Below, piece by piece: positions 1 through 15,256 of a DNA stretch of 15,256 nt. A program made the position numbers and the translations under genes. Origin of the DNA: a virus (taxonomy: Duplodnaviria; Heunggongvirae; Uroviricota; Caudoviricetes); the IMG/VR virus record IMGVR_UViG_2526164646_000014. One strand, 5' to 3'. Numbering within the stretch: the stretch's first letter is position 1; each line of letters starts with the position of its first letter. Under the pieces are notes generated by a model, which saw only the letters and a program-made list of their open reading frames with translations, was not told the origin of the DNA and ran no database searches.

Positions 1-48
1 TTATACCCCGCAGGGGTCATAACATGCTTGACAACTTAATAGGGGCAC

Positions 49-738
49 GTTACTCTCCGGACTCCGCACCGCCGTGTTCTTCGGTTCAAGTCCCAACATC
101 CGGGCGAACTGGCGTGTTTCATTAGCCCGGTAGCATGAACCATTATCCGTCAGCCACTCCACTGGAGACGACGGAAGATCGTTGCCGAAGCGGCGTTCCA
201 CCGCTCCCAGCATGACGTCCTGTACTGTTTCACTGTTGAAGCCGCCGGTAGTCACCGCCCAGTGCAGTGCCTCACGATCACAGCAGTCCAGCGCGAACGT
301 GACACGCAGTCTCTCTCCGTTATCACAGCAGAACTCGAACCCGTCAGAGCACCATCGCTGATTGCTTTCTTTCACGGCCACTCTGCCTGTATGTGCCCGT
401 TTCGATGGCGGTACAGCAGGTTTTCGCTCAAGCAACAGCGCATTCTGGCGCATGAGCCGGTAAACACGTTTGGCATTGATCGCAGGCATACCATCAAGTT
501 CTGCCTGTCTGCGAAGCAGCGCCCATACCCGACGATAACCATACGTGGGCAGCTCTCCGATAACATGGTGTATACGGAGAAGCACATCCGTATCATCAGT
601 GTGACGACTGCGGCGGCCATCCATCCAGTCATCGGTTCGTCTGAGAATGACGTGCAACTGCGCACGCGACACCCGGAGACAACGGCTGACTAAGCTTACT
701 CCCCATCCCCGGGCAATAAGGGCGCGTGCGCTATCCAC
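49..738 (-). pseudogene. insD: IS2 orfB transposase InsD, 3'-truncated (about 230 of about 301 aa retained)
   Basis: Translation [14 protein letters not shown]...[10 protein letters not shown] then diverges ([15 protein letters not shown]-stop); the C-terminal part of the DDE domain is missing. Confidence 0.8.
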
Positions 739-1061
739 TTTTTTGCCCGTCCATATTCAACGGCTTCTTTGAGGAGTTCATTTTCCATCGTTTTCTTGCC
801 GAGCAGGCGCTGGAGTTCTTTAATCTGCTTCATGGCGGCAGCAAGTTCAGAGGCAGGAACAACCTGTTCTCCGGCGGCCACAGCAGTAAGACTTCCTTCC
901 TGGTATTGCTTACGCCAGAGAAATAACTGGCTGGCTGCTACACCATGTTGCCGGGCAACGAGGGAGACCGTCATCCCCGGTTCAAAGCTCTGCTGAACAA
1001 TTGCGATCTTTTCCTGTGTGGTACGCCGTCTGCGTTTCTCCGGCCCTAAGACATCAATCAT
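696..1061 (-). CDS. insC: IS2 orfA transposase subunit InsC (121 aa, HTH)
   Basis: Starts [24 protein letters not shown]..., ATG at 1061..1059 on the minus strand; the track ORF 696..1106 carries a 15-codon N-terminal extension that runs into the inverted repeat. Confidence 0.85.
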
Positions 1062-1152
1062 CTGTTCTCCAATGACTAGTCTAAAAACTAGTATTAAGAC
1101 TATCACTTAAATAAGTGATACTGGTTGTCTGGAGATTCAGGGGGCCAGTCTA

Positions 1153-1893
1153 GATGCCAACACAAAGGCAACTAATAAAGATACAGATAAAGATCTAAAA
1201 ACAGATCTAACCCATCCCAAACCCTTCCCTTCCGGAAGGGAGTTTCGGGATTTTGTGGCTGGAGTGCTTGAGGGGAGATTATCTGGCGGTACTGCAGCGG
1301 AATTTTGTAATTCTGCGGTGGTTGCGTTGCAGGCTGCTGGCCTGGATGTCTGTCGTGAGTATCCGGTGCCAGAGCGTGGTGACGGTTGCGGAGGGCGGAT
1401 TGATATCGTCGTGACTGACAGGAACGGTGTCCGGTGTGGGATCGAGCTTGACCGAAATTCTCCGCGACAGAAATCACTGCTCAAAATCGGTGCTGTTGAA
1501 ACCGGGATATGTGTCTTGCGGCGCAGTGATATCGCAAGGCACACCGAGCAGGGAATTCTGGTTATCGGTGGGGCTGTTCGCCAGAAAAAATTTGACCCGT
1601 TGTCAGTTGATCTGCCCGACTGGTTGCCAGAAACACTCTGGCATGAGTGGGTCCAGTTCAGGCAGGCATTGCGAAAACCGATTCGAACGGAGCTGGGCGC
1701 TAACGGGGCGATACGGGAACTGGAAAAATTCCGTCAGCAGGGTTTTACACCTGAGCAGGTGATTCGACACAGCATCGCCAATGAATACCAGGGTCTGTTC
1801 GCGCCGAAAGGTGTTCGGCCTGAGACGTTGCTCCGACAGGTTAACACCGTCTCGTTGCCGGACAGTGCGATCCCGCTAGGCTTCAGGGGGTAA
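1153..1893 (+). pseudogene. Phage replication-initiation protein fragment (lambda O / Rac YdaU-like C-terminal part), 5'-truncated by IS2
   Basis: Reading frame is open from the IS2 junction at 1153 with no start codon until GTG at 1255; sits directly upstream of the DnaC-like gene as in Rac ydaU-ydaV (recalled gene order). Confidence 0.6.
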
Positions 1894-1899
1894 CAGACC

Positions 1900-2646
1900 A
1901 TGAAAAATATTGCGACAGGAGGCGTTCTGGAGCGTATCCGCAGACTGACCCCACCACATGTAACCGCCCCATTCAGAACGGTTGCGGAGTGGCGCGAGTG
2001 GCAACTTGCTGAAGGCCAGAAACGTTGCGAGGAGATCAACCGCCTGAATCGTCAGTTGCGGGTGGAAAAAATCCTGAACCGCTCCGGCATCCAGCCGTTG
2101 CACCGGAAGTGTTCGTTTGCGAATTACCGGGCGCAGAACGACGGTCAGCGACATGCACTGAGTCAGGCGAAATCCATAGCTGACGAACTGATGACAGGCT
2201 GTACGAATTTTGTGTTCAGCGGTAAGCCCGGCACCGGAAAAAATCATCTTGCAGCCGCGATTGGCAACCGGCTGATGGCGAAGGGGCGTAGCGTGATTAT
2301 CGTCACCGTGTCCGATGTCATGAGCGTGTTGCATGAGAGCTACGACAACGGCAAATCCGGTGAAAAATTTTTACAGGAGCTTTGTGGTGTTGACCTGCTG
2401 GTCCTGGATGAAATTGGCATGCAGCGGGATACGAAAAACGAGCAGGTGGTACTGAACCAGATTGTTGATCGCCGGACGGCATCGTTACGCGGTGTGGGGA
2501 TGCTGACAAATATTAACCATGCAGCGATGAATACACTTCTCGGCGAGCGGGTGATGGATCGCATGGTCATGAACGGCGGGCGCTGGGTTAATTTTAACTG
2601 GGAGAGCTGGCGTCCGAATGTTAGCCATTCGAGGGTTGTTAAGTAG
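1900..2646 (+). CDS. DnaC-like helicase loader / replication ATPase (AAA+)
   Basis: Walker A FSGKPGTGKNHLAAA and Walker B DLLVLDEIG in the translation; ATG at 1900 follows the upstream stop at 1891..1893; resembles Rac YdaV from memory. Confidence 0.85.
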   Translation: MKNIATGGVLERIRRLTPPHVTAPFRTVAEWREWQLAEGQKRCEEINRLNRQLRVEKILNRSGIQPLHRKCSFANYRAQNDGQRHALSQAKSIADELMTGCTNFVFSGKPGTGKNHLAAAIGNRLMAKGRSVIIVTVSDVMSVLHESYDNGKSGEKFLQELCGVDLLVLDEIGMQRDTKNEQVVLNQIVDRRTASLRGVGMLTNINHAAMNTLLGERVMDRMVMNGGRWVNFNWESWRPNVSHSRVVK

Positions 2647-2660
2647 TTTCAGGAGGATTT

Positions 2661-3083
2661 ATGGCGAAACCTTTTACTCCCGAACAGCGGGAAGAACTGA
2701 AGACGCGAATTGTGGAACTCGTGCATCAGGACGGTCGGGTCACGATTCGGCAGTTGTCCGATGAAACAGGTATCAGTCGTGCGTCTGTCGGTCGCTTATG
2801 CATAGAACTGGTCGCAAGTGGTGATGTATATAATTCTGGCTACGGCTTATTCCCGTCTGAACAGGCTCGCAAGGACTGGCAAAGCGCCCGCAAAAAACTC
2901 TCGAGAGTAAAGGTGAGGAAACCGGTTGTTGTTGATCCGGACCTTATCTGGTCATTACCTGACGGAGAAATACGCCGCTACGACAGGCGCCTGAATATAA
3001 TCTGTCGCGAGTGCCGGAAGAGCGAAGCTATGCAGCGTGTACTGGCTTTCTATCAGGGTAATTTTCAGGAGGCGATACTGTGA
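2661..3083 (+). CDS. Hypothetical phage protein, possible winged-helix DNA-binding fold
   Basis: 140-aa ORF with AGGAGG Shine-Dalgarno at 2651..2656; HTH-like stretch VTIRQLSDETGISRASVGRL. Confidence 0.6.
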   Translation: MAKPFTPEQREELKTRIVELVHQDGRVTIRQLSDETGISRASVGRLCIELVASGDVYNSGYGLFPSEQARKDWQSARKKLSRVKVRKPVVVDPDLIWSLPDGEIRRYDRRLNIICRECRKSEAMQRVLAFYQGNFQEAIL

Positions 3084-3497
3084 ATGAAATTAGCTATCAG
3101 GCTTCAATTACCGCTGGCATTCGCATCAAAGGAGAGGAGCATGGAAATAAAACCAGAAGATGAGTTAAGCAATATCGTTTTATTTCCGATAAAAGAGGAT
3201 GACCCTCGTAATCAGGTTAATTTTCTTTATAAGCCATCGGAAAGACCATATTGCCATCACGCCTCTGTACGGGTTGACGAAAAAGAGCGTCAGGTCCGCT
3301 GTAAAATCTGCGGTGCGGTTGTGGAGCCGTTTGACTGGATGCTCTCTGTGGCAAAAAGAGAAACCAGACTGGCAGATGATGTAAGGCTATTGCGCCAGGA
3401 GGAACAGGAAAGGCGGAGAAATATAGAAAAGCTGATACAGATTGAGCGTAACGCGAAAGCGCGGATACGCAGGGCGACAAAATCCAGAACTGAATAA
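3084..3497 (+). CDS. Hypothetical phage protein with C-HH...C-x2-C zinc-ribbon-like motif (alternative start 3141)
   Basis: ATG 3084 abuts the upstream stop (TGAATG); internal ATG 3141 has a stronger SD (ggagaggag, 3131..3139). C-terminal half is coiled-coil-like and basic. Confidence 0.55.
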   Translation: MKLAIRLQLPLAFASKERSMEIKPEDELSNIVLFPIKEDDPRNQVNFLYKPSERPYCHHASVRVDEKERQVRCKICGAVVEPFDWMLSVAKRETRLADDVRLLRQEEQERRRNIEKLIQIERNAKARIRRATKSRTE

Positions 3498-3808
3498 TTA
3501 AATTTAGCACTGTTAAAAATTTAATCCTTAACCGGAGGGATTTCTGCACCCTCAAATCATCAGGAGACCGCCCGAAAGGGCGGTAATGAATGGTTACATT
3601 ATTTAGAAAAAATATCCGCGAAAGAGTAGAACAACAGAATTCCTGTTTCTCATTCTGTTTATCGTGTTGATGACACCGATATCCCCGCAAATTTTTGTCT
3701 GGATAATCGGAAAAATAATTGAGCCAGTTATTGAATTGTATAACGACGTGGTATGGGCGTCATTCAACACACTGCACAATAAAATTAATCCGTATAAGGA
3801 AAGCTGAT

Positions 3809-4174
3809 ATGGCACTGACGAAAAAACAACGTGCAGAACTGCGCATGAAGTTCGGTGGTCGCTGCGCTTATTGCGGCTGCGAACTTGGCGAAAAGTGGCA
3901 TGCAGACCATGTAAAACCGGTCATTCGTTTTGATGGAAATATGCTTCACCAGGAACGTGACGATATATCCAACATGGTACCAGAATGCCACCCATGCAAT
4001 CTGCACAAGCATTGCAGTAGCCTGGAAGATTATCGACGAATTATCAGTGATGGTCGTCGTGAATTCCTTGCGTCCGGGAAAGGCAAAGCGCTGGTTCGTA
4101 TGGGATTGGTTGAAATGAAATCTGACCCGGTTGTGTTCTGGTTTGAAAAATATCAAGAAGGGGCTACGGCATGA
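3809..4174 (+). CDS. HNH endonuclease
   Basis: HNH signature in translation: CAYCGCEL...HADHVKP...NMVPECHPCNLHK; SD aagga at 3796..3800; the track ORF from 3719 is a 5' over-extension. Confidence 0.8.
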   Translation: MALTKKQRAELRMKFGGRCAYCGCELGEKWHADHVKPVIRFDGNMLHQERDDISNMVPECHPCNLHKHCSSLEDYRRIISDGRREFLASGKGKALVRMGLVEMKSDPVVFWFEKYQEGATA

Positions 4175-4836
4175 CTACTATTACCAAAGAGCGACTGCAA
4201 TGGCTGGCTAACATTTCTGGCCGCGATGATATTGACGATATAGACGGCGGTGAAATTCGTGAACTGGCGCTTATCGCTCTGGCATCACTGGAAGCAGAGC
4301 CTGTAGCGGAATGCATTGTTGAAGATGGGGGCATGTGTATTGACGGGTTCGGTGAGTATGTGGGTCACTCGCTGCCTGATGGAATGCATGAGCTTTATGC
4401 TGCCCCGCGAATGCGACAACCTGATGGATGGAAAGCCGTAGCTGTAGCGTGGAAGGTGACGTTTACTCAAGTTGACCAGGAATCTAATACGTTCACTGCT
4501 ATATATTTTTACAAAGCGGAAGTTGAGCGTTGGGTACGACTGCATAAAGCATGTGATTTTCGGGCAGATATAACACCGCTTTACGCAGCGCCGGCAGTGC
4601 CGGTTGCAGTAAACGACGACATGGCTTACGCATTCCATCACGCACTGTCAGATTCATCGCTTGGCTCTGATGAAATCGAAGAAATTAAAACCGGTTTGCG
4701 TGCTGCCTTTGCCAACGTCACTATCCAACCAGAGCCGATAGTGCCGGATGAAATCGGGCCAAACGATAGTAATACGTTTGATTATGTTGATGGCTGGAAC
4801 GCCTGCCGCGCTGCCATGCTTAAGGGAGATAAATAA
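4171..4836 (+). CDS. Hypothetical phage protein (acidic, 221 aa)
   Basis: ATGA overlap with the HNH stop (4171..4174) indicates translational coupling; no motif recognised. Confidence 0.55.
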   Translation: MTTITKERLQWLANISGRDDIDDIDGGEIRELALIALASLEAEPVAECIVEDGGMCIDGFGEYVGHSLPDGMHELYAAPRMRQPDGWKAVAVAWKVTFTQVDQESNTFTAIYFYKAEVERWVRLHKACDFRADITPLYAAPAVPVAVNDDMAYAFHHALSDSSLGSDEIEEIKTGLRAAFANVTIQPEPIVPDEIGPNDSNTFDYVDGWNACRAAMLKGDK

Positions 4837-5201
4837 TGATTAATCGAACCAAACTGGAGCACATTCTCGAATATGCCAGGCAGCAGAAATGTATTGGGCA
4901 ACTTTGTAAAATTCCACCAGGAGATATGGTTGAAATCGTGGAAATGGCCATGCGTAAGGCTGGCAACTCTCCGGTAACTCTGGCTGGCTGGATAAGCTGT
5001 AGTGATGCAGTTCCTGCTGAATATTGCGATGTGATTCTTCTCGATGATCTCGGGAATGTATTCCCCGGTTCCTGGGATAAGGTTTTTTGCCCCACTCGTG
5101 GCGGGAATAAGATGGCTTTTGTGGACAAAGACGGCGTTGAAGTAGAGAGCTCAACTCACTGGATGCCGCTACCGGAACCACCGCAGGAGGTGAATCAATG
5201 A
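4836..5201 (+). CDS. DUF551-like phage protein
   Basis: TAATG overlap with the upstream gene; C-terminal ...STHWMPLPEPPQ resembles the DUF551 signature recalled from lambdoid nin regions. Confidence 0.6.
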   Translation: MINRTKLEHILEYARQQKCIGQLCKIPPGDMVEIVEMAMRKAGNSPVTLAGWISCSDAVPAEYCDVILLDDLGNVFPGSWDKVFCPTRGGNKMAFVDKDGVEVESSTHWMPLPEPPQEVNQ

Positions 5202-5281
5202 CCTGGCCTGAGGCATTCACCACGGTAGGAATTGCGATGGCGGTGGCGCTGGTGGTGTATTCGATTTGCCGTTGGGGTTAA
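5198..5281 (+). CDS. 27-aa small hydrophobic peptide (single predicted transmembrane helix)
   Basis: ATG 5198 overlaps the upstream stop (ATGA); AGGAGG at 5185..5190 with 7-nt spacing; MTWPEAFTTVGIAMAVALVVYSICRWG; intrinsic terminator follows. Too short for the supplied ORF track. Confidence 0.5.
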   Translation: MTWPEAFTTVGIAMAVALVVYSICRWG

Positions 5282-5288
5282 CAAACAA

Positions 5289-5318
5289 AAACCCCGGATT
5301 GATGGTCCGGGGTTTTTG
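5289..5318 (+). terminator. Rho-independent terminator
   Basis: Stem acccccgga / tccgggg(t) at 5292..5299 and 5306..5313 followed by TTTTT. Confidence 0.8.
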
Positions 5319-5655
5319 AAGGAAACAAAACAGAAACAGCAATTGCCGTTACCTGTTGTTACCATGGCAAGTAAACGTATCTCAGGCGAGCGCATTGCGC
5401 CGTTCTGACGCAGATAAATTAGCCTGGATAGAAGGTGCTGGCAATAAAAAATAGCGTTTTCTTATCGGTATCGGTAAGATTGCTGCGGGTGCTTGAGGCT
5501 GTCTGCCTCGGGCATGCCACTGTAAGGCAGACAGAGAAAAGCCCCAGTTAACATTACGCGTCCTGCAAGACGCTTAACATTAATCTGAGGCCCAATCTAT
5601 GTCTCACAAATGTAGGTTAGCCTCTTACGTGCCGAAAGGCAAGGAGAAGCAGGCT

Positions 5656-5811
5656 ATGAAGCAGCAAAAGGCGATGTTAATCGCCCTGATCGTCATCTGT
5701 TTAACCGTCATAGTGACGGCACTGGTAACGAGGAAAGACCTCTGCGAGGTACGAATCCGAACCGGCCAGACGGAGGTCGCTGTCTTCACAGCTTACGAAC
5801 CTGAGGAGTAA
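5656..5811 (+). CDS. hokD: Hok/Gef-family type I toxin (51 aa), HokD/RelF-like
   Basis: MKQQKAMLIALIVICLTVIVTALVTRKDLCEVRIRTGQTEVAVFTAYEPEE matches the Hok architecture (TM helix then conserved C..R..G..EVA.F.AYE); SD aaggag at 5641..5646, 9 nt before the ATG. The track ORF from 5599 is an in-frame 5' extension. Confidence 0.85.
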   Translation: MKQQKAMLIALIVICLTVIVTALVTRKDLCEVRIRTGQTEVAVFTAYEPEE

Positions 5812-5880
5812 GAGACCAGGCGGGGGAGAAATCCCTCGCCACCTCTCATGTGTCAGGCATCCTCAACGCACCCGCACTAA

Positions 5881-5902
5881 ACCCGCTTTGGCGGGTTTTT
5901 TG
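5881..5902 (+). terminator. Rho-independent terminator downstream of hok
   Basis: cccgc-tttg-gcggg hairpin (5883..5895) followed by a T6 tract. Confidence 0.75.
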
Positions 5903-6046
5903 TTGCGTGCTGAATACGCAGGGTGAAAAATAACCATATATTTGATTATATACACAACAAAAATAAAAGTCATTGTACTTGCACATTAAACAATCAAATA
6001 TACGGCGTGAAATAAATATTTATCAGATTAATATTTTTGTCTCTAT

Positions 6047-6298
6047 GTGGATATAACCGTTTGTACTTATAAACCTGGGGGCATCGTGGAAAAAATAAAG
6101 AAACTATTTAGTAGCAAATACGCAGTCATACGTCGTGATGACCTGTCAGTTATAGTCGAAATGGATTACTTCCCTGAAACCCCAAAATCAATAATGTATC
6201 GTAATGGTCGAAAGGCAATTTTTTTACCGATGAGGGTAAGTGACATTATGGGAAATGATAAACTGCTGGATGAATTGCGAGTCAGAGCATCCTGTTAG
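6047..6298 (+). CDS. rem: Rem-like small prophage protein (83 aa)
   Basis: ORF with GTG start and no clear SD; position right after hok matches the Qin prophage order hokD-rem-ydfU in E. coli K-12 (recalled). Start uncertain. Confidence 0.45.
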   Translation: MDITVCTYKPGGIVEKIKKLFSSKYAVIRRDDLSVIVEMDYFPETPKSIMYRNGRKAIFLPMRVSDIMGNDKLLDELRVRASC

Positions 6299-6315
6299 TA
6301 GGTAATGACTCCAAC

Positions 6316-6819
6316 TTACTGATAGTGTTTTATGTTCAGATAATGCCCGATGACCTTGTCATGCAGCTCCACCGATTTTGAGAACGACAGTGACTTCCGT
6401 ACCAGCCTTGCCAGATGTTGTCTCAGATTCAGATTATGTCGCTCAATGCGCTGAGTGTAACGCTTGCTGATAACGTGCAGCTTTCCCTTCAGGCGTGATT
6501 CATACAGCGGCCAGCCATCCGTCATCCATACCACGACCTCAAAGGCCGACAGCAGGCTCAGAAGACGCTCCAGTGTGGCCAGAGTGCGTTCACCGAAGAC
6601 GTGCGCCACAACCGTCCTCCGTATCCTGTCATACGCGTAAAACAGCCAGCGCTGACGTGATTTAGCACCGACGTAGCCCCAATGTTCGTCCATTTCAGCG
6701 CAGACAATCACATCACTGCCCGGTTGTATGCGCGAGGTTACCGACTGCGGCCTGAGTTTTTTAAGTGACGTAAAACCGTGTTGAGGCCAACGCCCATAAT
6801 GCGTGCACTGGCGCGACAT
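6316..6819 (-). CDS. insB: IS1 InsB (fused to InsA by frameshifting to give the transposase)
   Basis: 167-aa ORF overlapping insA in the -1 frame; matches recalled InsB. Confidence 0.9.
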
Positions 6820-7013
6820 CCGACGCCATTCATGGCCATATCAATGATTTTCTGGTGCGTACCGGGCTGAGAGGCGGTGTAAGTGAACTGTAGTTGCCAT
6901 GTTTTACGGCAATGAGAGCAGAGATAGCGCTGATGTCCGGCAGTGCTTTTGCCGTTACGCACCACGCCTTCAGTAGCGGAGCAGGAAGGACATCTGATGG
7001 AAATGGAAGCCAC
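6738..7013 (-). CDS. insA: IS1 InsA
   Basis: [42 protein letters not shown]... (91 aa). Confidence 0.9.
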
Positions 7014-7146
7014 GCAAGCACCTTAAAATCACCATCATACACTAAATCAGTAAGTTGGCAGCATTACCCTGTTAGTATTGGCATTAATTCTGGTATACTA
7101 CATAACGGGCTGAACACCCATTCTACTGCGCCAGCGGAGAACTACG

Positions 7147-7746
7147 ATGGCGCATATACAACTGGTCAAACAAACCTCTTCCGGATTACTTCTCCCGGCG
7201 ACGCCGGAGAGTTGCGATTTTTTGCATCAAATCAAAATAGGTGAGTGGATACACGCAGACTTTAAGCGTGTGCGTAACTACGCATTCCACAAGCGTTTTT
7301 TCAAACTCCTGCAACTGGGATTTGATTACTGGACTCCGGTCGGTGGGGCGATCACGCCTCGCGAACGAAAACTGGTATCAGGCTTCGTTGATTACCTGTG
7401 CGAATCAGTAGGTCGGGAACACACTCCAGCCCTGAGTGATGCCGCAGAGCAATACCTTAATACAGTTGCGACATGCAGAACCCGGGATACGGCATTGCTA
7501 AAGTCGTTTGACGCTTTCCGCGAGTGGGTAACCATTCAGGCCGGATTTTACACCGAGCATATTTATCCTGATGGTAGTCGTGGGCGCAGGGCAAAATCTA
7601 TCGCATTTGCGAACATGGACGAAACCGAGTTTCAGCAGGTTTATAAATCTGTACTGAATGTGCTGTGGAACTGGATCCTGTTCCGTAAATTTTCCTCTCC
7701 GGAGGAAGTCGAAAATGTGGCCGCGCAGTTACTGGAGTTTGCGTAA
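7147..7746 (+). CDS. DUF1367-like phage protein (YdfU-like)
   Basis: 199-aa ORF; ggag SD at 7134..7137; position between rem and Q as in Qin (recalled). Confidence 0.6.
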   Translation: MAHIQLVKQTSSGLLLPATPESCDFLHQIKIGEWIHADFKRVRNYAFHKRFFKLLQLGFDYWTPVGGAITPRERKLVSGFVDYLCESVGREHTPALSDAAEQYLNTVATCRTRDTALLKSFDAFREWVTIQAGFYTEHIYPDGSRGRRAKSIAFANMDETEFQQVYKSVLNVLWNWILFRKFSSPEEVENVAAQLLEFA

Positions 7747-8036
7747 TGGTGGATTTACGTAAAGCGGCGCGGGGGCAGATGTGCACCGTCAGAATTCCTG
7801 GCTACTGCAATCACAATCCCGAAACTTCTGTGCTGGCGCATTACAGGCTGGCGGGGACGTGCGGAACAGCGACAAAACCACACGATATGCAGGCAGCGAT
7901 TGCCTGTAGCTCATGCCACGATTTAATCGACGGGCGGGTAAAAACCAGCGATTACACCAAAGAAGAATTACGCCTGATGCATGCAGAAGGTGTTTTTCGC
8001 ACACAAGAAATCTGGAGAAAGGAAGGTTATTTATGA
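7746..8036 (+). CDS. DUF1364-like cysteine-rich protein (YbcO-like putative nuclease)
   Basis: 96 aa with cysteines in pairs (C..C, C...C, CSSCHD); TAATG overlap with the upstream gene. Confidence 0.6.
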   Translation: MVDLRKAARGQMCTVRIPGYCNHNPETSVLAHYRLAGTCGTATKPHDMQAAIACSSCHDLIDGRVKTSDYTKEELRLMHAEGVFRTQEIWRKEGYL

Positions 8037-8587
8037 TTTACCCAACAAATACAGGCAAAAGCGGGGAACACCTTCGTCTCACCACGCTGGAAAGTGTCTG
8101 GATTCAGGGAAAACTGCGCATGTGGGGGCGCTGGTCGTATATTGGCGGCGGTAAGACGGGAAATATGTTTAACCAGTTGCTGGCATCCAAAAAATTGACG
8201 AAAACAGCCGTCAATGAAGCCCTGCGCAGGATGAAAAAAGCGGGAATAGAGAAACCTGAGCTGGAAGCGTTTTTGCGAGAGATGATCAATGGCAAGCAAA
8301 AGACCTGGCTGGCGCATTGTACTGATGCAGAGGCGTTATGTATTGATAGAGTCATAAGTGAGGTGCTGGCAGAGCATCCTGGATTGATTAGTGTCCTCCG
8401 GCAACGGTATGAAGGGCGGGGGATGACTAAGCGTAAAATGGCTGAATTGCTGAATGACGCACACCCTGAGTGGTGTTTCCGGACGTGCTGCAGTCGGGTA
8501 GATGTATGGCTAAATCTTGCTGAATATATGCTCTATCTACCGATGCGTGATGCATTCTCTTCCGGGGATCTAAAAACCGTTTGTTGA
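8033..8587 (+). CDS. Late-gene antiterminator Q-like protein (184 aa)
   Basis: ATGA overlap with the upstream gene; SD aaggaagg upstream of 8033; stop codon embedded in a strong promoter followed by a short leader and intrinsic terminator (the Q-qut-pR'-tR' arrangement). Track ORF from 7913 is an overlapping 5' extension. Confidence 0.6.
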   Translation: MIYPTNTGKSGEHLRLTTLESVWIQGKLRMWGRWSYIGGGKTGNMFNQLLASKKLTKTAVNEALRRMKKAGIEKPELEAFLREMINGKQKTWLAHCTDAEALCIDRVISEVLAEHPGLISVLRQRYEGRGMTKRKMAELLNDAHPEWCFRTCCSRVDVWLNLAEYMLYLPMRDAFSSGDLKTVC

Positions 8588-8613
8588 CTCAATCTGTTAT
8601 CCGGGGCTATATT
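8584..8613 (+). promoter_or_regulatory. pR'-like late promoter (TTGACT-18 bp-TATATT)
   Basis: -35 TTGACT at 8584..8589 and -10 TATATT at 8608..8613, immediately after Q. Confidence 0.5.
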
Positions 8614-8674
8614 CCTCACGCGCCAGCAAAATCTGGCGTCGGGATTGGCGTCCCGGATGTTTACGGAGCGATAT

Positions 8675-8697
8675 GAGACGCGCCCGCGTCTTTTTTC
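8675..8697 (+). terminator. tR'-like intrinsic terminator
   Basis: gacgc-gccc-gcgtc hairpin (8677..8690) followed by TTTTTT (8691..8696). Confidence 0.75.
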
Positions 8698-8974
8698 ATA
8701 TCGTTTGCACAGTCACATTCGCGATTTATGGCGGGCTGTGTGGGGGAGCCGAAAGGCTCGCCGGTTTCCGTACCCGGTTACGCCAACCCTGCACAGTTCG
8801 CCACCAGTTCGATTGGCGTCGTCGGTGGCGATAATTTCCAAATGTACGGAGTTATCGTTATGACCACTCAAATCTCTGTTGAAACTCTCTCCCCGATCAC
8901 CCATAACCAGTGAGGTAGCCTGAGTTTAACGGACACTCCTTCCTGAAATAGAATGGCATCAGAAGGAGCTAATA

Positions 8975-9277
8975 ATGAGCAGAAAAACCCAACGTTACTC
9001 TAAAGAGTTCAAAGCCGAAGCTGTCAGAACGGTTCTTGAAAATCAACTTTCGATCAGTGAAGGCGCTTCCCGATTATCCCTTCCTGAAGACACTTTAGGA
9101 CAATGGGTTACCGCCGCCAGAAAAGGGCTCGGTACTCCTGGTTCCCGCACGGTGGCTGAACTGGAATCTGAAATTCTGCAACTGCGTAAGGCGTTAAATG
9201 AAGCTCGCCTTGAGCGAGATATATTAAAAAAAGCAACAGCGTATTTTGCACAGGAGTCGCTGAAAAATACGCGTTAA
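8975..9277 (+). CDS. IS600 OrfA (HTH plus leucine zipper)
   Basis: MSRKTQRYSKEFKAEAVRTV...LERDILKKATAYFAQESLKNTR. Confidence 0.85.
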   Translation: MSRKTQRYSKEFKAEAVRTVLENQLSISEGASRLSLPEDTLGQWVTAARKGLGTPGSRTVAELESEILQLRKALNEARLERDILKKATAYFAQESLKNTR

Positions 9278-9312
9278 TCGAACAATGGCGACAACAATTT
9301 CCCATTGAAGCG

Positions 9313-10131
9313 ATGTGTCAGGTATTTGGTGTATCCAGGAGCGGTTATTACAACTGGGTACAGCATGAACCCTCAGACAGAAAACAAAGTGATGAGCGGC
9401 TAAAACTGGAGATTAAGGTGGCACATATCCGCACTCGCGAAACATATGGAACCCGGCGGCTCCAGACGGAGCTGGCAGAGAATGGCATCATCGTTGGTCG
9501 TGACCGACTGGCACGTCTTCGTAAGGAGCTGAGGCTACGCTGTAAGCAGAAACGCAAGTTCAGAGCGACTACGAACCCGAACCACAATCTGCCAGTTGCG
9601 CCAAATCTGCTGAACCAGACGTTCGCTCCTACAGCACCAAATCAGGTCTGGGTGGCGGACCTGACGTATGTTGCCACACAGGAGGGATGGTTGTACCTCG
9701 CTGGCATCAAAGATGTTTATACGTGCGAAATTGTCGGCTACGCCATGGGAGAGCGCATGACAAAAGAGCTGACAGGTAAAGCCCTGTTTATGGCGCTCAG
9801 GAGCCAGCGCCCACCTGCCGGGCTAATCCACCACTCTGATCGAGGTTCACAGTACTGCGCATACGATTACCGGGTCATACAGGAGCAGTCTGGTCTGAAA
9901 ACATCAATGTCGCGTAAAGGTAACTGTTACGACAACGCTCCGATGGAAAGCTTCTGGGGAACGCTGAAAAATGAGAGCCTGAGCCACTATCGTTTTAATA
10001 ACCGGGATGAAGCCATCTCAGTAATACGGGAATACATTGAGATTTTCTACAATCGTCAGCGTCGTCACTCTCGTCTGGGGAATATCTCCCCGGCAGCCTT
10101 CAGGGAAAAATATCATCAGATGACTGCTTAA
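9313..10131 (+). CDS. IS600 OrfB (DDE transposase catalytic domain; expressed as OrfAB by -1 frameshift)
   Basis: 272-aa ORF in the -1 frame relative to orfA, with IS3-family DDE-region sequence (WVADLTYV..., HHSDRGSQY). Confidence 0.85.
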   Translation: MCQVFGVSRSGYYNWVQHEPSDRKQSDERLKLEIKVAHIRTRETYGTRRLQTELAENGIIVGRDRLARLRKELRLRCKQKRKFRATTNPNHNLPVAPNLLNQTFAPTAPNQVWVADLTYVATQEGWLYLAGIKDVYTCEIVGYAMGERMTKELTGKALFMALRSQRPPAGLIHHSDRGSQYCAYDYRVIQEQSGLKTSMSRKGNCYDNAPMESFWGTLKNESLSHYRFNNRDEAISVIREYIEIFYNRQRRHSRLGNISPAAFREKYHQMTA

Positions 10132-10779
10132 AAAAAGAACAAATGGTAGTGTCCGCTATTGCCAGTACACCTCACAGATTCCTGTTATTACCACCGAACT
10201 TTTGGCGCAGCTTTACGGCACTGAGCCGGTGCGTATTCGCCAGAATCATCATGAGAACAAAGTACGCTTCGTTGAAGGGAAACACTTTTTCAAAGTTGTT
10301 GGTAATGACCTTAAAGAATTGCGGGTCGCTTTAAACTACTCACAAAATCCAGTTTCACCCAAAGCCCGCTCCCTCATCCTCTGGACAGAACGAGGCGCAG
10401 CACGCCACGGCAAAATGCTCGAAACCGATCAGGCGTGGGATGTGTTCGAAAAACTGGAAGACTGCTATTTCAGTCAAAGGGATCCGTCAACGCCAGTTTC
10501 ATGCCAGAAAAGTTACGACACGCGAGTTCTCTGTTATCAGAGAGGCGGTGTCACTGTTTCCACAATTCAGTTACGGGATGATGATATTGTTATTTCCCTT
10601 GAGTCATGGCTGGAACTGGCGAGAGCCAATGGTTGGTTTGTTGTTCGCAGAGATAAACTGGTGGAAAGGTTGATGCAGCTTTAAAAAAGTTCTTGCATTT
10701 TTGCACATAAACTGCTTCAATTCCGGTAAGCTTCGCAAAGCTGTATCGCGAGGCGAATAGCAGACATGGACACTTGAAA

Positions 10780-10805
10780 GAACCCGCTTTATGCGGGTTT
10801 TTTTG
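10780..10805 (+). terminator. Rho-independent terminator after the ORF6N gene
   Basis: acccgc-tttat-gcgggt hairpin followed by T7 tract. Confidence 0.75.
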
Positions 10806-10854
10806 TGCCTGAAAAATGGCACAGGGCGTTAAACGCGCTGGTGGTCAGATGAGT

Positions 10855-10883
10855 TTGCAGATGTGATGACATATGGTTATTAT
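10855..10883 (+). promoter_or_regulatory. Candidate sigma70 promoter for the tRNA cluster (TTGCAG-17 bp-TATTAT)
   Basis: -35 at 10855..10860 and -10 at 10878..10883, placing the start about 3 nt before the first tRNA 5' end. Confidence 0.45.
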
Positions 10884-10892
10884 TCTGCCTCC

Positions 10893-10969
10893 GGCCCTTT
10901 AGCTCAGTTGGTCAGAGCGAGCGACTCATAATCGCCAGGTCGCTGGTTCAAGTCCAGCAAGGGCCACCA
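10893..10969 (+). tRNA. tRNA-Ile2 (anticodon CAU, lysidine type; formally could be Met)
   Basis: Hand-folded cloverleaf: acceptor GGCCCTT/AAGGGCC, anticodon loop CTCATAA (CAT at 10927..10929), T-loop TTCAAGT, encoded CCA; close to recalled E. coli ileX. Confidence 0.8.
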
Positions 10970-10970
10970 A

Positions 10971-11047
10971 CCACCACTAGCTCATCCGGATAGAGCATCA
11001 ACCTTCTAAGTTGACGGTGCGAGGTTCGAGTCCTCGGTGGTGGGCCA
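10971..11047 (+). tRNA. tRNA-Arg (anticodon UCU)
   Basis: Acceptor CCACCAC/GTGGTGG (unusual C1:G72), anticodon loop CTTCTAA (TCT at 11005..11007), T-arm CGAGG-TTCGAGT-CCTCG, encoded CCA. Confidence 0.75.
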
Positions 11048-11049
11048 GC

Positions 11050-11125
<76 letters not shown>

Positions 11126-11128
11126 TAT

Positions 11129-11203
<75 letters not shown>

Positions 11204-12274
11204 TGACCTTTCTTAAAGTACTCCAACCTACTGAATCCTAAGGGATACGGCTTTAAGCCTCCTTGCAGAGTTACTTACTGTAACCCACTGTGTAACCCTC
11301 TCAGGGCATACAGACATATGATTCAGCTATCCAGTAGTCACAAACTTCCAGCAGTCTACTATCTCTACCAGCGTAACGGCGTCTACTACTTCCGTCTTAG
11401 GGTCAGACAATCAAACAATGATAGAATGACCTCAATATCATTACGGACCAAGGATAGACGCACCGCTATGGCTTACTCAAGGCACATAAAGGCAGCACTC
11501 AAGGCAATACACGCAGACAGACCCAACGCTACCTACGAGGAAATGAGGGAACACCTTAAGGACATCGCTGAGTGTGAACTGTCTATGGGCCGTTCAGATC
11601 TCTTTGAGCCTGACATGAGGGATATCTACCGGGACCAATACGGAGAACTTGGTGAGAGCCTTACCGATGCTCTGGCTAGTGAGCCGCTAAGCATTGACCA
11701 GCATCGTTACATCAATGAGGCCCTGAAGGTGCTAAAAGCCTGTATGAGGCGTATCGAAGCGGGAGACAGTCAGCCTCTGATAGATTACGTCGATCTTTTT
11801 AATGATATTGATAGGCAAGATAACCAAGCAGACTCTGTGTCCCTATCTGTTAATGCTCCAGAAGTAAAACCAGAAGTTACGCCTAGCATTACCATAGCGA
11901 GCCTCTTTGAGCAATACGAAGCGGAGAACTATCAGAACTGGAAGCCTGCAACCTTAAGGGAAAACAAGGCGTCACACGCTGCGTTAATCGAAATATTCGA
12001 CCATCTGGGTCTCAATGCAGACGCTAACAGGGCTGACATGCTTAGGGTCCGTGATGTGCTCCAGCAGTTACCTAGGAACCGTAAGCAGCGCTTCAAGGAT
12101 GTCCCACTTGCTGACCTGTTGAGCCGTGAAGATAAGACAGATTGTCTGGATGTCGTTACCATCAACAACAAGTATCTTATTAAGATGGCTGCTGTCTTTA
12201 GGTGGGCTGTGCGCAATGACTTGATTAAAAAGAACATGACTGAGGGTCTGGAGCTTAAAGTCCCTCTGAAGTGG

Positions 12275-13441
<1,167 letters not shown>

Positions 13442-14259
13442 TGGAGCACCTGTGTTGTTCTGAGGTGAGCATATCACCTCTGTTCAGGTGGCCAAATTCA
13501 GTGTGCCACTTCACTCAGCGTAAAGCCTCAGGGGCCCGTAACGCCTTCTCTACGGAGCAGGTGGGGCAACTACTGGTCGCAGCTAAGGCATACTCTCAGA
13601 AGACCTCTGGTAAGCCGTATCATTATTATGTTACCGCCTTGGCTGCTATCACTGGGGCGAGACTCAATGAAATAGCCCAACTACAGGTCAAAGACGTCAG
13701 GACCACTGAGGCGGGAACCGTTTATATTCATATCAATGAAGACGATAGTAGTCTACCCGGTAAGAGCATCAAGAACGCTCATAGTGACCGCTGTGTGCCT
13801 CTGGTCGATGGGGCCTATGGTTTTATATTGGCTGACTTTATGGCGCTTGTAGAGACCCGTAGAGGCGCTGACGGTGATGACGCTATGGTGTTCGATGGTC
13901 TGCGTCTCATGAAGAACGGTTACGGTGAGCAGGTGAGTAAATGGTTTAATCGGACGTTGTTGCCTAAAGTCCTCGTAGACCGTAGCGGCTTAGCGTTTCA
14001 CTCGTTTAGACATACAGTTGCGACCCAGTTAAAACAACATGGGGTCGAGTTGGCGTATGCACAGGCGATCATGGGGCATAGTTCAGGGTCTATTACGTAC
14101 GACCGTTATGCTAAAGAGGTCGAGGTTGATAGGCTGGTCAATGTGATGGCTGATGTTTATAAGGAGACCTAGAGGAGACCATAGTCTAGGATGACACTTA
14201 CTACAGACCTGTGTGGTCATGTTTTTGACTCATAGTTTTCTCTACTTGTCAAGGATAAT

Positions 14260-14282
14260 TAATACGACTCACTATAGGGAGA
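14260..14282 (+). promoter_or_regulatory. Perfect T7 RNA polymerase class III promoter consensus (TAATACGACTCACTATAGGGAGA), +1 G at 14277
   Basis: Exact 23/23 match to the T7 -17..+6 consensus read directly from the sequence; points rightward toward the repeat region and the Rha-like gene. Confidence 0.85.
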
Positions 14283-14480
14283 AGGGACACAAAAAGTTTT
14301 CTCTTCTAGGACAACTAACCGTAACTTATCGCATCCTTTCAGGGGCGGGATGACCAATTACAGACACCAAGCGTTCTACTTAAAGTGAATGCTTCCTGTG
14401 TGCTCTGGGTCAGTCGATAAGTGAATAGCAATAAGACACAATCATCTTAATTATGGTCTCTAGTCCCTACAGGGGCTTAA

Positions 14481-14565
14481 CTTAAAGTTAACTTAAAGAC
14501 ACAATTAAAGATTAACTTATAGTATTACTTAAAGTTAACTTAAAGACACAATTAGAGATTAACTT
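14481..14565. repeat. AT-rich tandem duplication (38-bp unit cttaaagttaacttaaagacacaatta[a/g]agattaactt, period 47 bp) inside a ~140-bp AT-rich tract rich in TTAAAG
   Basis: Copies at 14481..14518 and 14528..14565 differ at one position; additional TTAAAG / ATTAAAGA motifs extend to about 14615. Confidence 0.8.
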
Positions 14566-14666
14566 TAAGTATTAAATAAAAGATTTAATTAAAGACCAAT
14601 TAAAGATTAACTCTAAGGGAATACCTTAAGGGGTGATGATATTTATAATAATCAATCACCAAACCT

Positions 14667-14743
14667 ATAGGTCTTCTCTAGGGTCTCTCTATAGGTCTTC
14701 TCTATGGTCTCTCTATAGGTCTCTCTAGGGTCTCCTCTAGGCA
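14667..14743 (+). repeat. Iteron array B: about 6 direct copies of a 12-bp unit (A/G)GGTCT(C/T)TCTCTA
   Basis: aggtcttctcta gggtctctctat aggtcttctctat ggtctctctat aggtctctct agggtctcctctagg, read directly. Confidence 0.8.
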
Positions 14744-14760
14744 TTACCCCCAGAAGCTAA

Positions 14761-14800
14761 CTCTATGGCCCTCTATGGTCCTCTATGGTCCTCTATGGCC
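14761..14800 (+). repeat. Iteron array C: 4 perfect tandem 10-bp units CTCTATGG(C/T)C
   Basis: ctctatggcc ctctatggtc ctctatggtc ctctatggcc. Confidence 0.85.
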
Positions 14801-14847
14801 CTGTACGTCATTCTTTAGGATGCCCTGTAGTTTCGTATAGCCTGATG

Positions 14848-14892
14848 CCTAGAGAGACCCTAGAGAGACCCTAGAGTGGCTCCTAGAGAGAC
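14848..14892 (-). repeat. Iteron array D: 4 copies of CCTAGAGAGAC (reverse complement of the array B unit)
   Basis: cctagagagac cctagagagac cctagagtggct cctagagagac; reverse complement GTCTCTCTAGG matches array B units. Confidence 0.8.
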
Positions 14893-15055
14893 CCTCCCAG
14901 TAGCTCCGCACAGCTACATCGTCATCATCATAGTATTCAATCTCAAAGTCATTCTGTTTGCATCCTGTTGTCCTGCTGGTCTCCCTTCGCTTGGGGACTT
15001 TGAGTAGGTCAGTGGGGGTGCGACTTCAGGGTGCAAACAAAAAGGAAATCAAGCG

Positions 15056-15228
15056 ATGTCTCAACAACCACAACAACCACAACAACCACAACAACCACAA
15101 CAAGAAATCAGCATCATTAACCTCGACCAGCTTGTGTCCATGACCTCAGTTGAAATTGCTGAGCTGACAGGCAAGGAGCACCGAAATGTCCTTCGTGATA
15201 TTCGTAAGATGCTCGAAGAACTTAACGC
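15056..15228 (+). pseudogene. Phage regulatory protein Rha-like (N-terminal 57 codons), truncated by IS1
   Basis: SD agga at 15043..15046; MSQQPQQPQQPQQPQQEISIINLDQLVSMTSVEIAELTGKEHRNVLRDIRKMLEELNA then the IS1 end; the SVEIAELTGKEHRNVLRDIRK stretch resembles the Rha family N-terminus (recalled). Confidence 0.6.
15062..15103 (+). repeat. In-frame 9-bp tandem repeat (CAACAACCA x4.7) encoding (QQP)n
   Basis: caacaacca repeated, read directly in the Rha-like ORF. Confidence 0.9.
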
Positions 15229-15256
15229 GGGTAATGCTGCCAACTTACTGATTTAG
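15229..15256 (+). mobile_element. IS1, terminal 28 bp of a second copy (runs off the window), inverted relative to the copy at 6301..7068
   Basis: GGTAATGCTGCCAACTTACTGATTTAG is identical to the end of the first copy at 7068..7042 (reverse complement). Confidence 0.85.

Follow-up and report, generated by a model that had tools for sequence, protein, structure and literature searches.

The window analysed here, 15,256 nt of a virus record (IMGVR_UViG_2526164646_000014, Caudoviricetes), contains a sequence identical to a consensus promoter of the bacteriophage T7 RNA polymerase. This raises the question of whether the promoter is natural and, if it is, to what kind of element it belongs. As the original prediction had stated, TAATACGACTCACTATAGGGAGA agrees with the T7 class III/phiOR consensus at 23 of 23 positions. 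The predicted transcription start is the G at 14277. The sequence occurs once in the window; no second site within three mismatches was found elsewhere in the window, and none of 200 dinucleotide shuffles of the window matched it, which bears out the view that a chance match is very unlikely. It is 100% identical to the promoters phi9, phi10 and phi13 of the T7 genome. When the flanks are included, the top match in the T7 genome is phiOR (42 nt at 86%), and phiOR and phi1.1A are the best flank-inclusive T7 matches. The promoter begins 88 nt past the stop codon of an integrase gene (14170–14172) and is directed toward a series of repeats and a Rha-type open reading frame at 15056; both the distance and the direction had been described correctly. 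A scan for sigma-70 promoters and intrinsic terminators gave nothing over background.

The 23-mer is also the standard laboratory promoter, and a scan of one genome per species found it in just four records, three of which are tiny contigs that are vector-derived, with the promoter in a CMV-T7-polylinker context, and that provided a contamination control. These contigs (L004, L005 and L006; loci are designated by L numbers throughout) come from public draft assemblies of Pseudoalteromonas caenipelagi, Pseudomonas schmalbachii and Proteiniclasticum aestuarii, and share an identical CMV-promoter/T7-promoter/polylinker/Kozak-ORF cassette, that is, mammalian expression-vector contamination. The fourth record is the chromosome of Klebsiella pneumoniae ATCC 13883. 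A laboratory promoter introduced by vector contamination or assembly chimerism was weighed for the window as well. Unlike those of L004–L006, the window flanks contain no polylinker, lacO, CMV or other vector parts, in agreement with the original description of them as not vector-like. Moreover, positions 13516–15058 of the window are 92–97% identical in nucleotide sequence to syntenic islands at a tRNA-Gly gene of complete E. coli chromosomes. Of 5426 complete E. coli genomes, 91 contain the 288-nt non-coding stretch around the promoter, in each case on the chromosome; in total, at least 91 complete E. coli chromosomes, the K. pneumoniae ATCC 13883 chromosome and ~24 metagenome contigs hold the same promoter in the same setting. 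Independent complete chromosomes carry the exact promoter at this locus (one copy in L001, two in L002), and each of the nine islands sampled contains one or more T7 promoters that match exactly or nearly so. Chimerism and contamination, which had been named as grounds on which the observation would fall, are excluded by this comparison, and we rejected an origin from a vector or a chimera, whose probability we consider negligible, because the locus is common to 91 complete genomes and vector parts are absent. The promoter had further been placed in a chromosomal prophage. The chromosomal part of that description holds, as the 91 complete genomes demonstrate; the prophage part does not, because the promoter lies in the tRNA-Gly island and not in its lambdoid neighbor.

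The promoter is conserved far beyond its surroundings. In an alignment of 19 T7-type copies from 12 loci, 3 of the 23 promoter columns are variable, while 60 of 60 and 40 of 40 columns vary in the two flanks, and the near-invariant copies come from four unrelated flank contexts. That the promoter columns are nearly fixed while all flank columns vary indicates selection on the promoter itself. The ~120-bp unit that contains the promoter is present in tandem in close relatives, with three copies in L014 and L016, which carry the same allele as the window, and two in L002 and L008. Based on these comparisons, the window promoter is probably a natural, T7-polymerase-dependent promoter of a known island family.

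To judge from alignment with these relatives, what the window holds of the island is a 1.7-kb relic whose integrase gene is truncated by IS911 and whose Rha gene is truncated by IS1 (Table 1).

Table 1 Features of the island relic and of the adjoining insertion-sequence ends in the window
Feature	Coordinates	Strand	Basis or remark
IS911 (IS3-family) end, not island	13400-13513	-	99% identity to IS911 of Shigella phages Sf6 and SfII
Island tyrosine integrase, 3' fragment	13514-14172	+	Pfam Phage_integrase, E=6e-19
Promoter unit, ~120 bp, one copy in the window	14188-14307	+	Comparison with relatives
Exact T7 consensus (class III/phiOR) promoter TAATACGACTCACTATAGGGAGA	14260-14282	+	Promoter positions -17 to +6
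Conserved transcribed block CTAACCGTAACTTATCGCATCCTTTCAGGGGCGGGATGACC...GGGTCAGTCGATAAGTGAATAGC	14315-14429	+	Kept in E. coli-type and Klebsiella-type islands
AT-rich block with ACTTAAAG/ATTAAAGA repeats, 76% A+T	14465-14630	+	TRF arrays 14477-14612
Hairpin GGTGATGATATTTATAATAATCAATCACC, preceded by CTCTAAGG	14632-14660		Kept in L001, L002, L007 and metagenome islands
Three 10-12-nt tandem-repeat arrays CTATAGGTCTCT, CTCTATGGCC and CCTAGAGAGAC	14665-14895		TRF
Conserved leader just upstream of the first promoter-driven gene	14938-15055	+	Comparison of islands
Rha-family regulator gene, 5' fragment	15056-15229	+	Pfam Phage_pRha, E=7e-10, profile positions 1-31 of 91
IS1 terminal inverted repeat, not island; the window ends within it	15230-15256		Match to IS1 end in L001

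The island segment between the two insertion sequences (13514–15229) is nearly identical to L014–L016. Alignment to L015, which keeps an intact integrase gene, places the left break at 13513/13514; what remains in the window encodes the C-terminal 218 aa with the catalytic domain, and the N-terminal ~320 aa of a protein that has 529–548 aa in full-length homologues are gone. At the other end, the Rha fragment opens with a CAACAACCA (QQP) repeat at 15062–15103 and belongs to a gene whose full-length homologue in L008 encodes 234 aa. The junction at 15229/15230 recurs in L015, which runs on into IS1, and the IS1 end in the window differs from that in L001 by one substitution in 30 nt. The promoter, an origin-like block and the leader are intact in the relic. 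Two features of complete islands described below are absent: a motif resembling the T7 concatemer junction is missing because the IS911 deletion removed that part of the integrase gene, and the terminal direct repeats are missing because IS elements replaced both ends of the island. The relic would at most be transcribed, and perhaps replicated in situ, and is predicted to be unable to move by itself.

Positions 1–13400 of the window comprise a lambdoid-type prophage segment followed by IS3-family elements, and the genes of the segment (replication and Nin-region genes, including DUF1367, ORF6N and Ea22-like ones) are those annotated in E. coli relatives. We considered whether the island is part of this neighboring prophage and rejected it, because positions 1–13400 are joined to the relic only through IS911. 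The left 13.4 kb is unrelated to the island, so the prophage context is a coincidence of IS-mediated rearrangement. Separately, repeat copy numbers were found to differ between the window and the near-identical L015, by 18 nt in the CAACAACCA (QQP) repeat, by a 47-nt unit in the AT-rich block and by 10–12-nt units elsewhere; the number of promoter units ranges from one to three among the window, L014 and L016.

Complete islands are 4.2–6.9 kb long and are integrated at tRNA-Gly(CCC), adjoining actS. The 3' end of the tRNA is directly repeated at their borders, with CCCTTCGCCCGCTCCA at both ends in eight complete homologues, and all of their genes lie on one strand. The order begins with a tyrosine integrase of 529–548 aa, which a DUF4145 gene overlaps in some islands, followed by short tandem repeats and one to four T7-group promoters. 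It continues with the conserved transcribed block, the AT-rich repeats with the hairpin, further short repeats and the conserved leader, and ends with a KilA-N, Rha or distant-Rha gene, variable cargo and attR. Searches with Pfam, PHROGs and PADLOC identified solely the integrase, DUF4145/RAZR, KilA-N, Rha, DUF6971 and uncharacterised proteins among the island products; the KilA-N proteins gave weak PADLOC matches to PD-T4-2_B. The cargo consists of a 157-aa uncharacterised protein, or of DUF6971 together with an uncharacterised protein of 373–402 aa. The latter pair recurs downstream of the promoters in L013:6738–8370, L007:8922–10610 and L008:8434–10056, and its 373–402-aa member has no Pfam, PADLOC or PHROGs match; it is a candidate for an uncharacterised anti-phage or helper-interference module. 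Polymerase, replication, capsid and conjugation genes were found in none of the islands, no polymerase was seen among the proteins of the sampled islands, and no open reading frame of the window exceeds 340 aa. As no cognate polymerase is encoded nearby, the promoter should depend on a T7-like phage.

The promoter arrays vary among islands. Some islands carry the T7 promoter alone, others combine it with TAATACGACTCACTAAAGGGAGA (T7/T3-like), and Klebsiella islands as well as some E. coli islands carry promoters of the AATTAGGGCACACTATAGGGAGA type, with or without the T7 promoter. The AATTAGGGCACACTATAGGGAGA-type promoters match those annotated in Klebsiella phage K11, and one T7 promoter and three such K11-type promoters are found together in the island of K. 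pneumoniae ATCC 13883. The ~24 metagenome islands likewise carry varying arrays, which in L039 and L052 have decayed (e.g., TAATACGACTCAGTATGGGGAGA) while the integrase reading frame is intact.

Downstream of the promoter, the islands share several non-coding elements. The conserved transcribed block served as the probe with which the ~24 further islands were recovered. The predicted fold of this 5' transcript block is not compelling (z = −1.9), and a search of Rfam returned one sub-threshold chance match and nothing more. The AT-rich block that follows was compared with T7-type origins by local alignment, with dinucleotide shuffles as the background; against the AT-rich part of the origin it scored z = 9.1 for phage IME15 and z = 6.5 for T7 (5900–6010). 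Its matches in the phage database fall between gene 1 and gene 1.1, right after the tandem promoters. By this comparison, the block significantly resembles the AT-rich part of the T7-type primary replication origin, and in L001 and L002 a degenerate second promoter with the upstream context of phi1.1A is present. The corresponding block of Klebsiella-type islands showed no preferential match to Klebsiella phages and gave weak matches only. Similarity between the hairpin and T7 39327–39352, downstream of phiOR, was borderline (z = 5.0, equal to the best shuffle).

Every unit of the 10–12-nt repeats contains a recognition pentamer of the T7 primase (GGGTC, TGGTC or GTGTC). Such pentamers occur at 24 per kb in 14173–15055, with a z-score of 9.0 that the repeats inflate, and at 24–26 per kb in E. 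coli-type islands (z about 9–12, equally repeat-inflated), against ~8 per kb in T7; the pentamer-rich repeat regions of relatives include L001:8667–9645 and L002:8667–9881. Pentamer enrichment is absent from the Klebsiella-type island. The leader contains an extended hairpin at 14960–15021 with 24 predicted pairs, two of which show compensatory changes. This hairpin is kept in L001, L002, L007, L031 and L039 although the gene that follows differs (Rha, KilA-N or a 163-aa protein), and could serve in RNA processing or regulation.

A further likeness to T7 lies within the integrase gene. Each complete island has exactly one ATCTGTT on the + strand, located inside this gene. In Klebsiella-type islands the surrounding sequence, CTCTGTGTCCCT|ATCTGTTA, is identical to T7 over 20 of 20 nt and over 30 of 35 nt when extended; in T7 it corresponds to the mature right end of the DNA and the sequence next to it in concatemers. 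ATCTGTT itself is the strictly conserved core of the class II pause/termination signal of T7 RNA polymerase and is present at the T7 junction (10.1101/2021.01.11.426313; 10.64898/2026.02.12.705533). The motif has the same orientation as the promoters and falls in a variable linker of the integrase reading frame (L007:5275–5296 and L001:7551–7575, and also in L013, L010 and L012). A 51-mer around it matches 671 records of T7-like phages, and among the matches listed, the annotated ones sit at the ends of annotated terminal repeats. In E. coli variants with T7 promoters only, the motif is reduced to CTATCTGTTAG, which has no phage match, and the islands resembled neither the left end of the T7 genome nor its terminal repeat more closely than chance would give. 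In a synonymous-site test, the seven-codon window of the motif ranked 41 of 541, a result that is only suggestive and is partly circular because the sequences were selected by the motif itself; coding constraint may contribute to its conservation. In L039, as an anecdotal case, ATCTGTT has been lost through a synonymous GTT-to-GTA change in an island whose promoters have decayed too. Since the motif lies upstream of the promoters in the integrated state, a polymerase that started from them would reach it only on a circle or a concatemer.

The DUF4145 gene of many variants is a full-length match to PADLOC PD-T7-4 (E=2e-100). PD-T7-4, since renamed RAZR, is an RNase that acts by abortive infection and is triggered by the T7 portal protein (PMC13017515); according to Vassallo et al. 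(PMC9519451), it "often overlaps an integrase gene". Neither of these RAZR papers (PMC9519451, PMC13017515) mentions adjacent T7 promoters. In many island variants, RAZR directly follows and overlaps the integrase gene and lies just upstream of the T7/K11 promoter array (L010:4257–4886, L012:4247–4888, L013:4153–4785 and L007:6397–7029); the variant in the window has no RAZR. Because RAZR is upstream of the promoters, they cannot drive it on the integrated island.

The islands have also moved. K. pneumoniae ATCC 13883 and E. coli 22F46 share a 6.4-kb island at 95.9% identity, whereas their chromosomal flanks are 77.6% identical on the left and unrelated on the right. An island identity so far above that of the flanks indicates a recent site-specific transfer between genera, in an element that lacks conjugation genes. 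An attP junction, circular or tandem, had no match in the metagenome and viral contigs, and all ~24 metagenome islands are embedded in a chromosome. The island core was matched in only three viral contigs, with IS911 adjoining the island in two; from their sequence context these look like islands within host DNA, not free virion DNA. As a separate observation, the island of E. coli 23S01245-7 stands in tandem behind an integrative element with CbtA/YeeU, RadC and antirestriction genes (L012:1–2620). The two elements share the tRNA-derived att core, which indicates repeated use of the same attachment site.

Starting from the observed anatomy, conservation, homology to T7 cis-elements and mobility of the islands, we infer dependence on T7 RNA polymerase, transcription, replication, excision and packaging, which would proceed as follows. 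The promoter would act as the induction switch of the island and would be silent in an uninfected cell. A T7-like phage would make its polymerase and shut off host transcription, so that the island would be strongly transcribed from its T7-type promoters and the Rha or KilA-N protein and the cargo would be expressed. The promoters could also prime replication by the phage replisome at the AT-rich block, as in the T7 origin. If the island DNA were circular or concatemeric, transcription would run into the junction motif, where pausing of the polymerase and cleavage by the phage terminase could initiate packaging. Packaging of island concatemers would turn the island into a satellite and, at the same time, a carrier of anti-T7 immunity. 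We consider it possible, with less than even confidence, that the islands at tRNA-Gly parasitise virulent T7-group phages as true satellites. Without replication or packaging genes of their own, they would be switched on, amplified and packaged solely by means of helper-polymerase promoters, a T7-type origin and a concatemer junction, and would deliver RAZR-type immunity across genera.

The same islands could be read purely as defence islands whose spread is not mediated by phages. The promoters would then serve only as a sensor of the phage polymerase that drives toxic or anti-phage genes. Phage polymerase and replisome may in addition be titrated by the promoters and the origin-like block, and transfer would take other routes. 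Many variants do hold RAZR/PD-T7-4, which is proven to act against T7 by abortive infection, the genes behind the first one differ between islands as they do in defence hotspots, and the weak PD-T4-2_B matches of the KilA-N proteins and the lack of encapsidated or circular forms among the metagenome and viral contigs point the same way. A defence role by itself leaves unexplained the exact 20-nt copy of the T7 genome end and concatemer junction, as well as the intact integrase, the att sites and the intergenus transfer of 6.4 kb without conjugation genes; moreover, RAZR, being upstream of the promoters, is not driven by them when integrated. We give defence without phage-mediated spread a slightly lower probability than the satellite reading, and defence and satellite lifestyles are not mutually exclusive. 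That three kinds of T7-type cis-element adjoin an integrase could also be understood if the islands had decayed from a temperate T7-like phage and the cis-elements were left over; Pseudomonas putida has a comparable T7-like prophage. The att boundaries of complete islands are clean, their gene set is very small and constant, and T7-like polymerase, replication, capsid or tail genes were found in none of ~35 island copies. In addition, the cis-elements are arranged unlike those of T7 (the junction, for instance, lies inside the integrase reading frame), T7 and K11 specificities coexist in one island although no single phage would need both, and an intact unit was transferred between genera. These observations make a phage remnant highly improbable.

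Compared with the T7 origins (phi1.1A/phi1.1B and phiOR), the islands have the same succession of one or more promoters, sometimes in tandem, and an AT-rich block of the TTAAAG type, with promoter flanks nearest to those of phiOR and phi1.1A and with abundant primase pentamers. They differ in that the AT-rich block is ~190 nt downstream of the promoter instead of adjacent to it, has been expanded by tandem duplication and, as a candidate origin, sits in a bacterial island. The junction motif agrees with the T7 concatemer junction in its 20-nt identity, in its orientation relative to the promoters and in the T that precedes ATCTGTT, as in the published signal; unlike the T7 junction, it lies within the coding sequence of the integrase, has no terminal repeat or left end, and is degenerate in some variants. 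RAZR is expressed from its own promoter in published work; in the islands it lies upstream of T7 promoters. Like known phage satellites (P4-like elements, PICI, PLE and the minimal vibrio PICMI), the islands are small and integrase-bearing, would be silent until a specific helper infects, would use helper functions and carry anti-phage cargo, and they may be packaged as concatemers in the manner of PICMI. Marker genes of P4-like elements, PICI, cfPICI and PLE (e.g., alpA/pri-rep/terS, psu/delta/sid) were not found among the island proteins with Pfam, PHROGs and PADLOC. Unlike known satellites, the islands have no replication genes of their own, their helper would be a virulent T7-type phage, and induction would occur through promoters for the helper polymerase and not through an anti-repressor. 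We know of no demonstrated satellite of T7-type virulent coliphages.

An island family of this kind was reportedly described in silico by Chen and Schneider (Nucleic Acids Res 2006, 34:1133; PMID 16493139). They are said to have found 12 islands of 4–13 kb in nine enteropathogens. These islands reportedly had two to three T7-like promoters in tandem downstream of a tyrosine integrase, direct repeats at their ends, a small number of phage-related genes, none of them structural, and no polymerase gene, and they are said to have been proposed as satellite phages activated by a T7-like polymerase. The features derived here agree with that description, so this kind of island was already known. The window shares with those islands a promoter without a polymerase gene, a same-strand integrase directly upstream and homology to complete islands; it differs from them in having a single promoter and in being truncated by IS elements. 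The literature that we searched contained no experimental follow-up of islands with T7-like promoters. Further observations made here are a quantified similarity to the T7 origin, the 20-nt junction copy in the integrase gene, the linkage to RAZR, which post-dates the 2006 description, and a 96%-identical island in two genera.

The weight of the window itself is modest, as it holds a dead member of a family that in silico work described in 2006. Clinical strains of E. coli, Shigella and Klebsiella with natural promoters of the T7 and K11 types may respond unexpectedly to therapeutic T7-like phages or to T7 expression systems. For the family as a whole, a sharp and testable hypothesis of a T7 satellite arises from the likeness to the T7 origin, the junction motif and the linkage to RAZR. 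If it is true, a 4-kb element that operates on helper cis-signals alone would be the most minimal satellite known, and its spread would account for the movement of T7-specific immunity genes, RAZR among them, from host to host.
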